A program made the position numbers and the translations under genes. This document shows, piece by piece, positions 60,968-62,215 of a DNA stretch of 64,000 bases. The number at the start of each line of letters is the position of its first letter. Position 1 is the stretch's first letter. Source of the stretch: Escherichia phage vb_EcoM_bov11CS3; the sequence record MT884009.2; one strand, written 5' to 3'. Under the pieces are notes generated by a model. The model saw only the letters and a program-made list of their open reading frames with translations, made no database searches and was not told the DNA's origin.

Positions 60968-61044
60968 TGGTCTCCACGGAGTGATTCGAACACTCGACCT
61001 CCTGATCCCAAATCAGGCGCTCTACCAAGCTGAGCTACGCGGAG
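60968..61044 (-). tRNA. tRNA-Pro (anticodon TGG), 77 nt, CCA encoded
   Basis: Hand-folded: acceptor CTCCGCG/CGTGGAG, anticodon stem CCTGA/TCAGG with loop TTTGGGA, T-arm GAGTG-TTCGAAT-CACTC. Confidence 0.8.
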
Positions 61045-61055
61045 TATTTATTATT

Positions 61056-61130
61056 TGGTGGCCCTGGGTGGAATTGAACCACCGTCTGGCGATTATGAGT
61101 CGCTTGCTTGAACCTTCCAGCTACAGGGCC
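61056..61130 (-). tRNA. tRNA-Met (anticodon CAT), 75 nt, CCA encoded
   Basis: Acceptor GGCCCTG/CAGGGCC, anticodon loop CTCATAA, T-arm GGTGG-TTCAATT-CCACC; Met versus lysidine-Ile not distinguishable by eye. Confidence 0.7.
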
Positions 61131-61131
61131 T

Positions 61132-61207
61132 TGGTGCTGATGGCAGGACTTGAACCTACAACCTATTGATTACAAATCAATTGCACTACCGATTGTGCTA
61201 CATCAGC
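61132..61207 (-). tRNA. tRNA-Thr (anticodon TGT), 76 nt, CCA encoded
   Basis: Acceptor GCTGATG/CATCAGC, D-arm GCAC-AATCGGTA-GTGC, anticodon stem ATTGA/TCAAT with loop TTTGTAA, T-loop TTCAAGT. Confidence 0.8.
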
Positions 61208-61212
61208 AAAAA

Positions 61213-61311
61213 GGTGCTAGGTGATGGAATCGAACCACCTATGTATTCAACGACTACCTCGTCTATTTTCAGGATTAAAAATCCTCGCCCTTGCCAAAGG
61301 GCTTACCTAGC
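61213..61311 (-). tRNA. atypical tRNA-like gene, 99 nt, anticodon loop TTTTTAA (Lys-TTT-like), about 30-nt variable region
   Basis: Perfect 7-bp acceptor GCTAGGT/ACCTAGC, D-arm GCCC-TTTGGCAA-GGGC, T-arm GGTGG-TTCGATT-CCATC, but only a 4-bp anticodon stem (AGGA/TCCT) and an oversized variable region with internal hairpin ACGA-GGTAG-TCGT; 3' end CC-T, not CCA. Confidence 0.35.
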
Positions 61312-61409
61312 TCAGTATGTTGACCATGTTGCTAGTCGGCGATGACGACTGTAACATTTGATAATCCGGTTCTGCTTCCGGCTTTCGCTTAATTACAAGG
61401 TCAACAATG

Positions 61410-61500
61410 TGGCGGAGAGTAATGGAATCGAACCATCATCGAGTCATCCTCAACGGGACGGTTTTCAAGACCGCTTGAGCACCATTGCTCCCTACCCTCC
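61410..61500 (-). tRNA. tRNA-Ser (anticodon TGA), 91 nt, long variable arm, CCA encoded
   Basis: Acceptor GGAGGGT/ACTCTCC, anticodon arm GCGGT-CTTGAAA-ACCGT, T-loop TTCGATT. Confidence 0.75.
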
Positions 61501-61614
61501 TTTATAAATTATACTGATAATGACACTGATTTTCGAGCAGTTAGTGACTAGTATAAACGACGATAAATATCAATGCCATTATCTGCATTATTTATGCATC
61601 TAAAAATATAAATT

Positions 61615-61701
61615 TGGTGGGGAGTGGTGGAGTCGAACCACCCGAGTCGCAATGACAATAGATTTACAGTCTACACCGCTACCTCTACGGGATAACTCCC
61701 C
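61615..61701 (-). tRNA. tRNA-Tyr (anticodon GTA), 87 nt, long variable arm, CCA encoded
   Basis: Acceptor GGGGAGT/ACTCCCC, anticodon region GACTGTAAATCT, T-arm GGTGG-TTCGACT-CCACC. Confidence 0.75.
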
Positions 61702-61705
61702 AATT

Positions 61706-61780
61706 TGGCACCCCGTACTGGACTCGAACCAGTGTCAACGGCTTAGAAGGCCGCTGCTTTATCCACTAAGCTAACAGGGC
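61706..61780 (-). tRNA. tRNA-Arg (anticodon TCT), 75 nt, CCA encoded
   Basis: Acceptor GCCCTGT/ACGGGGT (two G-U pairs), D-arm GCTT-AGTGGATA-AAGC, anticodon arm GCGGC-CTTCTAA-GCCGT, T-arm ACTGG-TTCGAGT-CCAGT. Confidence 0.7.
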
Positions 61781-61838: not shown

Positions 61839-61867
61839 ATATTACACTGTTAAGCAAAGTTTGTCAA
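61839..61867 (-). promoter_or_regulatory. sigma70-like promoter upstream of the tRNA cluster
   Basis: Minus-strand TTGACA (rc 61862-61867), 17-nt spacer, TAATAT (rc 61839-61844); about 50 nt upstream of tRNA-Arg. Confidence 0.45.
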
Positions 61868-61876
61868 GAAAATATT

Positions 61877-62215
61877 TTAACTATTGCCAACAGGCTGTAT
61901 TTCTGTGGTGAATGGCATAAAAGGTGCTGGTTTTTCAGCCTCTTCTACTACCACCTCTTCCTCTTCACCAAACATCTCATCATATTCTTCCTGCATTCGG
62001 TCTGCCTTATCAAGAACATACTCTGCAATGCTTTGACGAATATTTTGTTTGGTTTTCGGGTCCAACATCAGCTCTCTTAAAACTTTGTGAGCTTCTGGAA
62101 CCATCGCTATAAAAGATTCCTTCATATCAAGGATGTTCTTCTCTAGCTGAATGGCGTTGGACTCCTCTTTCAGAGGTCTGCCTCTACGGCGACGCTTTTT
62201 AGTTGTATCCGCCAT
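61877..62215 (-). CDS. small basic/acidic DNA-binding-like protein, 112 aa (terminase small subunit candidate)
   Basis: Start moved to ATG 62215, preceded by GGAGG; N-terminus MADTTKKRRRRGRPLKEE is AT-hook-like; acidic C-terminal tail. TerS assignment is an inference. Confidence 0.35.
   Translation of the reverse strand: MADTTKKRRRRGRPLKEESNAIQLEKNILDMKESFIAMVPEAHKVLRELMLDPKTKQNIRQSIAEYVLDKADRMQEEYDEMFGEEEEVVVEEAEKPAPFMPFTTEIQPVGNS

Follow-up and report, generated by a model that had tools for sequence, protein, structure and literature searches.

A predicted family of tRNA-shaped RNAs in the tRNA clusters of rV5-like phages and their relatives

Known tRNA-like RNAs and an aberrant gene in a phage tRNA cluster

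Phage tRNA genes have lately been recognised as weapons against tRNA-cleaving bacterial immunity, and the known cases are ordinary tRNAs: the tRNA-Lys of phage T5, directed against PARIS, the tRNA-Tyr of T5 and T6, directed against retron-Eco7 and Septu, and anticodon-loop variants are all otherwise canonical decoders with a conserved anticodon. The subject of this report is a 99-nucleotide (nt) tRNA-like gene, hereafter the element, on the minus strand (61311 to 61213) of a 64,000-nt stretch of Escherichia phage vb_EcoM_bov11CS3 (MT884009.2; this whole stretch is the window). An earlier note had singled it out, from the letters alone, as aberrant amid a canonical tRNA cluster, an impression that ARAGORN and the Rfam tRNA model uphold. 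With the anti-defence tRNAs, the element shares a phage Lys-type stem-loop, the presence of Rnl1 and Pnk genes in the same phage, and a fast-evolving loop, but its anticodon is not conserved and its body is non-canonical. Judging from comparative sequence data, it is a member of a real, strongly conserved and previously undescribed phage family of tRNA-shaped RNAs, and is probably a tRNA mimic or a special-purpose tRNA, not an ordinary decoder or a dead gene.

The species 1 and 2 RNAs of T4 (rnaC and rnaD) are extra small stable RNAs of a phage tRNA cluster, co-transcribed and processed with the tRNAs, as the element would be; rnaC has a T-arm-like hairpin, and the role of both has been unexplained for decades. 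At 119-139 nt, they are not full cloverleaves, whereas the element is a complete cloverleaf with a CCA-type end. A covariance model of the family, R1, built from 30 of its 35 distinct variants, finds no match at E <= 1 in the region of rnaC and rnaD (L054:1909-2172) and picks up only the T4 tRNA-Thr and tRNA-Leu, at 25 bits or less, so that homology to these RNAs is apparent neither by sequence nor by model.

Cellular pseudo-tRNAs, such as the 'tRNA-Other' of Bacillus cereus and the cell-wall tRNA-Gly of Staphylococcus, keep acceptor-end features while taking little or no part in translation and act as regulators or aminoacyl donors; they are of normal length and have normal 7-nt anticodon loops. 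The present family, in contrast, is found only in phages and combines a variable domain of 31-40 nt with loops of 5-7 nt. A long variable domain, a possible 6-base-pair (bp) D stem with a 4-nt loop and widely varying anticodons are shared with tRNA-Sec, allo-tRNAs and nev-tRNAs. The latter, however, have acceptor/T domains of 8/5, 9/4, 8/4 or 9/3 bp and G73, whereas the family has 7/5 bp, U73 or A73, and a hairpin that lies between long single-stranded linkers. A tRNA-Sec identity, which calls for a 13-bp acceptor/T domain (8/5 or 9/4), a UCA anticodon and G73, can accordingly be set aside, as can an allo-tRNA identity (8/4 or 9/3), given that the 7/5 arrangement is backed by covariation. The tRNA-Sec model RF01852 is the best sub-threshold Rfam match of members outside the rV5 clade, but this is uninformative: two homologues score 37.6 and 23.2 bits (cut-off, 47 bits), and ordinary class II phage tRNAs score alike (tRNA-Ser, 41.5; tRNA-Tyr, 33.7).

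Fold, covariation and extent of the family

ARAGORN calls the gene as 'tRNA-??? (atcc)', 99 nt (61311..61213, minus), and the Rfam tRNA model RF00005, run over the whole window, matches 61311-61215 at 35.5 bits (gathering score 29, E = 9.5e-4). Neither program replaces the fold drawn by hand in the earlier note with a normal-length cloverleaf. The parts of the RNA, from its 5' end to its 3' end, are as follows.

61213..61311, minus strand: the whole 99-nt tRNA-like gene (ARAGORN, Rfam, and R1 at 100 bits)
61305..61311, minus strand: acceptor stem, 5' strand GCUAGGU, pairing with ACCUAGC at 61216-61222 (7/7 pairs); A8 and A9 follow, between acceptor and D stem
61287..61302, minus strand: D arm GCCC-UUUGGCAA-GGGC, with G18 G19 inside (sequence and covariation)
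61271..61285, minus strand: anticodon-like stem-loop AGGA-UUUUUAA-UCCU, flanked by G26 and G44 (sequence)
61264..61270, minus strand: 5' linker of the variable region, GAAAAUA, near-invariant in the family (family alignments)
61249..61263, minus strand: variable-region hairpin GACGA-GGUAG-UCGUU, 5 bp (an A-U to G-C compensatory change in the TH18 group)
61240..61248, minus strand: 3' linker of the variable region, GAAUACAUA (family alignments)
61223..61239, minus strand: T arm GGUGG-UUCGAUU-CCAUC, with one G.U in the stem (Rfam alignment)
61213..61222, minus strand: acceptor 3' strand ACCUAGC, discriminator A73 and encoded CC (sequence); five U residues and tRNA-Thr come next

The element has the 7-bp acceptor stem, the 5-bp T stem with a 7-nt T loop and the G18G19/T-loop elbow of canonical tRNAs. 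It departs from them in its variable region, which in canonical tRNAs is 4-5 nt (class I) or an arm of ~10-24 nt with linkers of 1-2 nt (class II) and here is 31 nt, a hairpin between single-stranded linkers of 7 nt and 9 nt, and in having A8 and U14 where tRNAs usually have U8 and A14. The 4-bp anticodon stem around TTTTTAA, the variable region of about 30 nt and the CC-T end noted earlier are all found (the end reads A-CC-U). The arms then described as perfect call for some amendment: the acceptor stem pairs throughout, the T stem includes one G.U, and the D loop is corrected to 8 nt. The D stem can be extended through U14-A21 and U15-A20 to 6 bp with the 4-nt loop UGGC, an extension that the alignments neither support nor refute because both pairs are invariant. 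Canonical elongator tRNAs have an anticodon stem of 5 bp and a 7-nt loop with U33 and a purine at 37; the anticodon arm of rV5 can be drawn with 4 bp and the loop UUUUUAA (U33, A37), or with 5-6 bp and a 5- or 3-nt loop; the minimum-free-energy fold adds two U-A pairs and leaves a UUU loop. The base after the encoded CC is U, so the terminal A of the rV5 element must be added.

The fold energy of the element is -34.2 kcal/mol (z = -3.66), and none of 200 shuffles was as stable. The rV5 copy matches the tRNA model alone among Rfam models, both at gathering score and at E <= 10; even at this latter threshold, YrlA/Y RNA, tmRNA and mascRNA-type tRNA-like RNAs give no match on the element, and ARAGORN finds no tmRNA in the window. 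Terminator-like matches that a simple scan places inside the element are its D arm and T arm preceding U runs and were treated as artefacts.

The 1-kb stretch around the element is identical (100%) to Escherichia phage vb_EcoM_bov22_2 and 99.5% identical to phage rV5 (Vequintavirus), by which the source of the window is an rV5-like Vequintavirus. BLAST shows the element at 97-100% identity in ~120 rV5-like records and, with the rV5 copy as query, reaches TH18 (unclassified Vequintavirinae, 94%) and two Seunavirus phages (72-75%). A search with the Seunavirus copy returned 186 records of the genera Seunavirus, Mydovirus and Henunavirus, with Escherichia, Klebsiella, Salmonella, Cronobacter, Erwinia, Enterobacter, Proteus and Raoultella as hosts, and the motif ATACATAGGNGGTTNGATTCC retrieved further copies, family members only, from IMG/VR and metagenomes. 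None of 185,579 species-representative genomes of bacteria and archaea contains this motif, and a search of 5,426 complete E. coli genomes found no copy of the element; on these searches, a host origin was rejected. The comparison with related phages that the earlier note had proposed thus yields orthologues in four genera (Vequintavirus, Seunavirus, Mydovirus and Henunavirus) and, with the metagenomic copies, the 35 distinct variants; as far as sampled, the family appears phage-specific and confined to Vequintavirinae and related uncultured phages. The model R1 separates it sharply from other tRNAs: members score 87-120 bits, every other tRNA in ~380 kb of loci, including the class II tRNAs for Ser, Tyr and Leu and the tRNAs of T4, scores 29 bits or less, and each locus holds exactly one member. 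Members beyond the rV5 clade are missed by ARAGORN and by Rfam at gathering score.

The shape of the RNA is borne out by the way in which it changes. When 24 proposed pairs are followed through the 35 variants, 99% of 832 cells hold standard pairs, and at 13 pairs both bases have changed; 500 shuffles never reach the observed values, and slid controls are only 34-48% paired. The covarying pairs are spread over the acceptor (5/7), the D stem (3/4), the anticodon stem (3/5) and the T stem (1/5). The tertiary elbow pair between D-loop G19 and T-loop C56 becomes U19:A56 in 11 variants, and this covariation, together with that of the helices, implies that the RNA folds as an L-shaped tRNA.

Outside the helices, conservation is highest in the two linkers that flank the variable hairpin: GAAAA(A)UA is near-invariant, and AUACAUA is present in 35/35 variants, in part by selection, given that the patterns of the collection scan included it. 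The variable domain as a whole spans 31-40 nt across the family, and its hairpin, which has a covarying stem, spans 5-9 bp, being longer in the other genera than in rV5. The hairpin loop carries conserved motifs that differ by lineage: Seunavirus has GYGUGGAG, GAACUAACAGUAC is shared by Mydovirus, Henunavirus and part of the metagenomic members, and a separate metagenomic group has CUUUUAGGG. Over 109 nt, the members from Mydovirus agree at 98-99%, as against 70-97% in their 900-nt flanks, and in four Klebsiella-phage members, the 109 nt are identical except for loop positions 2-3, while the 900-nt flanks are 73-96% identical.

These data bear directly on two options that the earlier note had listed, a pseudogene and a tRNA with a small insertion. 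The low tRNA-model score (35.5 bits), the inconsistent annotation and the lack of an encoded terminal A might suggest a decaying tRNA pseudogene or a tRNA with a removable insertion or intron. Purifying selection far above that on the flanks, conservation throughout the ~120 rV5-like genomes, homologues in four genera, and compensatory changes in every helix and in the tertiary pair are the opposite of decay, and the supposed insertion is the best-conserved region, its enlargement ancestral in the family. There are no features of a group I intron, bacterial tRNA introns of this type being nothing like it, and no Rfam match except tRNA. The comparative data exclude both readings, and we find them hardly credible.

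Loop, discriminator and possible role

The anticodon-like loop is the least conserved part of the molecule. It measures 5-7 nt, mostly lacks U33 and takes at least 12 sequences among the 35 variants: UUUUUAA in rV5; UUUAUAA in the TH18 group; CAUCCA, CAUCA or CCUCAA in Seunavirus; CAUCCA, CCACCA, CCGCCA, CUUCCA, CAGCCA or CCUCCA in Mydovirus; and [C/U]AUCAAA or AAUCAAG in Henunavirus and the most divergent metagenomic members. Most members have 5-6-nt loops or A33/C33, and the conservation of the anticodon among orthologues that is expected of an elongator tRNA is not seen. In Mydovirus, C32, C35, C36 and A37 are conserved, while positions 33 and 34 vary at least as fast as the neutral flanks. 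With flanks diverged by 3-30%, the changes at 33/34 denote a lack of constraint and are no proof of diversifying selection, and we make no claim of positive selection on the loop. Going by these alignments, the body of the element is far more constrained than its neighbourhood, and the equivalents of 33/34 are unconstrained, the opposite of what a decoding tRNA would show. In most members, the anticodon arm is ill suited to standard decoding, and with these two positions free to change in Mydovirus while all else in the RNA stays fixed, ordinary codon reading cannot be what the family is conserved for. Moreover, the element is retained by relatives whose own complement of canonical tRNAs is 18-24, in some cases with a normal tRNA-Lys(UUU) and tRNA-Gly(UCC) included, so that in those phages it is not filling a decoding gap.

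The rV5 clade presents another facet. The acceptor end looks fit for use, and its 3' sequence differs among clades: most members have U73-CCA, the rV5 clade has A73-CC (or A73-CA), and in the TH18 group, ACA comes after C73 or U73. A73 and a UUU triplet occur together in the rV5 clade only, most other clades having U73-CCA with an NCC or UCA triplet. An anticodon UUU with A73 is the identity set of LysRS, and the canonical tRNA-Lys genes of related phages also have A73. The rV5 arm, (G)AGGA-UUUUUAA-UCCU(G), set against that of E. coli tRNA-Lys, GUUGA-CUUUUAA-UCAAC, has the same loop except for position 32 and the same two closing pairs. The most serious rival reading, of which we remain doubtful, is that the rV5-clade RNA is a working if atypical tRNA-Lys(UUU), charged by LysRS and reading AAA/AAG, that serves as a codon supplement and/or as a nuclease-tolerant back-up, one that host anticodon nucleases would handle poorly owing to its unusual stem and body. 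Such a role would agree with the possible 7-nt loop containing U33, UUU, A37 and A38, with the Lys discriminator in this clade alone, with the absence of any other tRNA-Lys from the phage (ARAGORN), whose other tRNAs mostly read NNA codons (AGA, UCA, ACA, CCA and AUA), with the label tRNA-Lys (AAA) in several GenBank records and with a score above the RF00005 gathering threshold. The anticodon, however, is not kept: the TH18 type, the closest outgroup (94%), has UAU, C73 or U73 and no CCA, and the other genera have 5-6-nt loops. The stem is either one of 4 bp flanked by G.G or, in the minimum-free-energy fold, one of 5-6 bp with a 5- or 3-nt loop; A8/U14 and the 31-nt variable domain are unlike any known Lys tRNA; and the rV5 authors and many annotators made no tRNA call. 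Known complexes further make a clash plausible, in that class II synthetases other than SerRS approach the side of the variable arm. In the rV5 lineage, the copy has secondarily gained a canonical-looking Lys loop together with A73.

Elsewhere in the family, the acceptor end has a different complexion. Most other members combine U73, G1:C72, C2:G71 and C35 (C36), a set that resembles the identity set of GlyRS, and canonical phage tRNA-Gly genes have the same discriminator and first two pairs as the U73 members; this glycine-like set may be regarded as a lead. That discriminator and triplet co-vary in the manner of synthetase identity sets (A73 with UUU; U73 with G1:C72, C2:G71 and C35C36) is also what a special-purpose adaptor might show, a charged RNA used for recoding or suppression (of UGA, in the UCA-loop forms), for the promotion of frameshifting or for non-ribosomal aminoacyl transfer, with allo-tRNAs, nev-tRNAs and non-proteinogenic tRNA-Gly as analogues. 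The retention of C32, C35, C36 and A37 in Mydovirus while 33/34 vary, the [C/U]AUCAAA loop of the most divergent members, one base from the tRNA-Sec/opal-suppressor loop CUUCAAA, and a likeness to tRNA-Sec and allo-tRNAs in the long variable domain and in the possible D stem of 6 bp closed by a 4-nt loop all lean in this direction. We nonetheless consider such an adaptor improbable. In a crude test, the largest open reading frames become no longer with readthrough of TGA, TAA or TAG, and TGA is a stop in the UCA-loop phages, so that no signal of stop- or sense-codon reassignment emerges; A33/C33 and 6-nt loops decode poorly; a switch from a Gly-like to a Lys-like identity is hard to square with one fixed non-ribosomal chemistry; and no candidate for a tRNA-dependent transferase was seen near the cluster.

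Of the options in the earlier note, a non-canonical tRNA and a tRNA-derived regulatory RNA survive, and the pattern across the family, with its loops of 5-7 nt that usually lack U33 and its free positions 33/34, favours a tRNA mimic or special-purpose tRNA. Our preferred reading, put forward tentatively and with less than even confidence, is a tRNA mimic matured like a tRNA and acting in conflicts over host tRNAs. The phage family would encode a stable L-shaped mimic ('pseudo-tRNA') that is transcribed with the tRNA operon, cut by RNase P at its 5' end and trimmed at its 3' end, its CCA being given or completed. Family members retain everything that makes up the upper half of a tRNA, from the acceptor stem and the T and D arms to the G19:C56 contact at the elbow, and a conserved, enlarged variable domain; in this reading, the acceptor end and core would be the parts that are needed, and the variable domain would form a specific functional surface. 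The RNA, possibly aminoacylated, could then take the place of particular tRNAs as the substrate, surrogate or decoy, of a host factor that attacks or handles them, and discriminator and triplet would shift together with the identity that is mimicked, A73 and UUU in rV5 and the glycine-like set in most other clades. A related proposal, which we deem possible but doubtful, is that the members are CCA-ended and probably chargeable mimics with a functional variable domain, whose loop and discriminator have been retuned clade by clade (Lys in rV5, Gly-like elsewhere) for counter-defence as decoys or for service as recoding adaptors.

There is a context in which such mimicry might make sense. The anticodon stem-loop of E. 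coli tRNA-Lys is the classic target of PrrC, RloC and PARIS, and T4 Rnl1 and Pnk repair tRNA-Lys cut by PrrC. An Rnl1-family RNA ligase (PF09511), a P-loop polynucleotide kinase and a metallophosphoesterase are encoded 3-5 kb from the tRNA cluster in rV5-type genomes, just past the end of the window, and resemble a set for RNA healing and sealing; damage to tRNAs is a pressure that matters to this phage. In Bas52 (MZ501102), the set lies at 131201-133209, which by offset corresponds to ~64.7-66.7 kb on the scale of the window, and a Sir2-domain protein adjoins it. A natural deletion in phage V18 (L059:671-743) fuses the 5' two-thirds of tRNA-Tyr to the 3' third of the element, removing tRNA-Ser and both spacers and leaving a chimeric gene that is unable to form an acceptor stem. 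The element is, by this deletion, dispensable for propagation and plaque formation, which fits an accessory or counter-defence role.

Several observations weigh against the mimic. The repair genes are far more widespread than the element, so that their linkage is context and not a specific association, and the idea that the Rnl1 ligase is a dedicated partner has been dropped. For the Seunavirus and Mydovirus forms, simple mimicry of what an anticodon nuclease cuts offers no explanation, since their 5-6-nt loops without U33 are unlike any host anticodon loop. The linkers and the lineage-specific hairpin-loop motifs, the most conserved parts of the molecule, are unexplained by the decoy model. 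Finally, the canonical rV5 loop (U33, A37, A38), in a phage with no other tRNA-Lys, fits a true decoder equally well.

The operon around the element and its annotation

The element lies within a compact cluster for which a likely start of transcription can be proposed from the sequence.

60968..61780, minus strand: tRNA cluster containing the element (ARAGORN, Rfam, sequence)
61839..61867, minus strand: sigma-70-like promoter TTGACA-17-TAATAT upstream of tRNA-Arg (promoter scan; the equivalent site is P(tRNA) in the rV5 annotation), the likely start of the tRNA operon transcript

Read from 61780 to 60968 on the minus strand, the cluster begins with Arg(UCU) and Tyr(GUA); a 114-nt spacer separates these from Ser(UGA), and one of 98 nt separates Ser(UGA) from the element, which is followed by Thr(UGU), Met/Ile2(CAU) and Pro(UGG). 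The six neighbours had been described as canonical tRNAs with an encoded CCA, and all of them do encode CCA (6/6). Across the family, the element always sits in tRNA clusters, on the same strand as the adjacent tRNAs and 2-7 nt from them, and other structured spacers adjoin it; the T4 tRNA cluster, too, yields extra stable RNAs. These features might be taken to mean that the element acts in cis, as a processing or architectural part of the operon transcript (RNase P/RNase Z punctuation or a folding aid), and is functionless once released. Punctuation, however, needs only an acceptor/T minihelix, and the linkers, the hairpin loops, the covarying anticodon stem, the elbow pair and the discriminator with CCA would go unexplained; moreover, the position in the cluster varies by genus, the element preceding Thr in rV5 and following it in the others. 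A purely cis-acting part therefore strikes us as quite unlikely. A tRNA mimic or special-purpose tRNA remains the more probable identity of the element.

The spacers have features of their own. That between tRNA-Ser and the element (98 nt, 61312-61409, minus) contains, in its conserved core, the hairpins CCGG...CCGG and AGUCG...CGACU, and a stem encloses both, with 3 compensatory pairs in 4 rV5-like variants (z = -2.57); it is a candidate for a second structured RNA of the operon. The AT-rich spacer between tRNA-Tyr and tRNA-Ser (114 nt, 61501-61614, minus) forms a long near-perfect hairpin (z = -4.09, 0/200 shuffles as stable) that overlaps a promoter-like TCGAAA-17-TATAAT directly upstream of tRNA-Ser. 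In Seunavirus, TH18-like and some Mydovirus phages, conserved structured cassettes of ~170-190 nt lie directly 3' of the element (L004:1306-1500, L006:1300-1480, L005:1300-1500). They are closed by long terminal stems, for instance AAGCAUAUUUUGAAGUGCAU...AUGCAACUCAAAAUAUGUUUGC, some contain tRNA-like pieces (UAGCUCAG, CUUAAAA), and they have no Rfam match. The tRNA directly 5' of the element (L018:1431-1505, L004:1119-1194, L005:1121-1193, L015) is aberrant too: it lacks U33, has the anticodon loop ACGAUA (6 nt), ACGAUUC, AAGAUUC or ACAGAUCC, and is labelled Ile, Ser or '???' in phages that also have a canonical tRNA-Ile(GAU). Their sequences suggest a small block of non-standard tRNAs around the element in those phages. 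Within the window, the tRNA with the CAU anticodon (61056-61130, minus), for which Rfam flags a non-standard 27:43 pair, appears in the BASEL records as tRNA-Ile (AUA, which implies lysidine) and in some others as tRNA-Met.

Two neighbouring genes deserve mention. A phrog_3330 protein of 112-136 amino acids is always encoded in or beside the tRNA cluster (window 61877-62215, minus; L016:2130-2495; L006:1750-2160); its N-terminus is basic and bears an RGRP AT-hook-like motif, its C-terminus is acidic, and no Pfam domain was found in it. Considered as a possible partner of the RNA, it was set aside, since it has the look of a regulator that binds DNA. The large terminase gene, by the spanin genes (window below ~60150; rV5 gp065; L001:1-465), is annotated in rV5 and Bas52 as a three-part join, which implies intervening sequences in an essential gene.

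Existing annotation of the element is markedly inconsistent. The rV5 reference genome and the rV5 paper give six tRNAs and omit it, whereas other records label it tRNA-Lys (AAA), tRNA-OTHER, tRNA-Stop (tta) or tRNA-??? (atcc), or not at all; a full-text literature search found no description of this RNA. The existence of the family explains why annotation pipelines disagree on the gene and miss its homologues in ~60 other phage genomes. Among the GenBank records, 18 (MG0656xx) are named 'Campylobacter phage' and are 99-100% identical to rV5-like coliphages over the locus; these are probably mislabelled or contaminant assemblies.

Taken together, a phage-only RNA family that is supported by covariation and keeps the whole body of a tRNA, while its anticodon drifts and its variable region is expanded, points to tRNA mimicry over decoding. 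The system is tractable, given that the BASEL phage Bas52 and its relatives grow on E. coli K-12 and that V18 offers a natural deletion, and as a model, it could address the role of non-decoding RNAs in phage tRNA clusters, RNA C and D of T4 among them. If the members of the family are indeed retuned tRNA mimics, they would provide the first functional handle on the unexplained 'extra' stable RNAs of these clusters.

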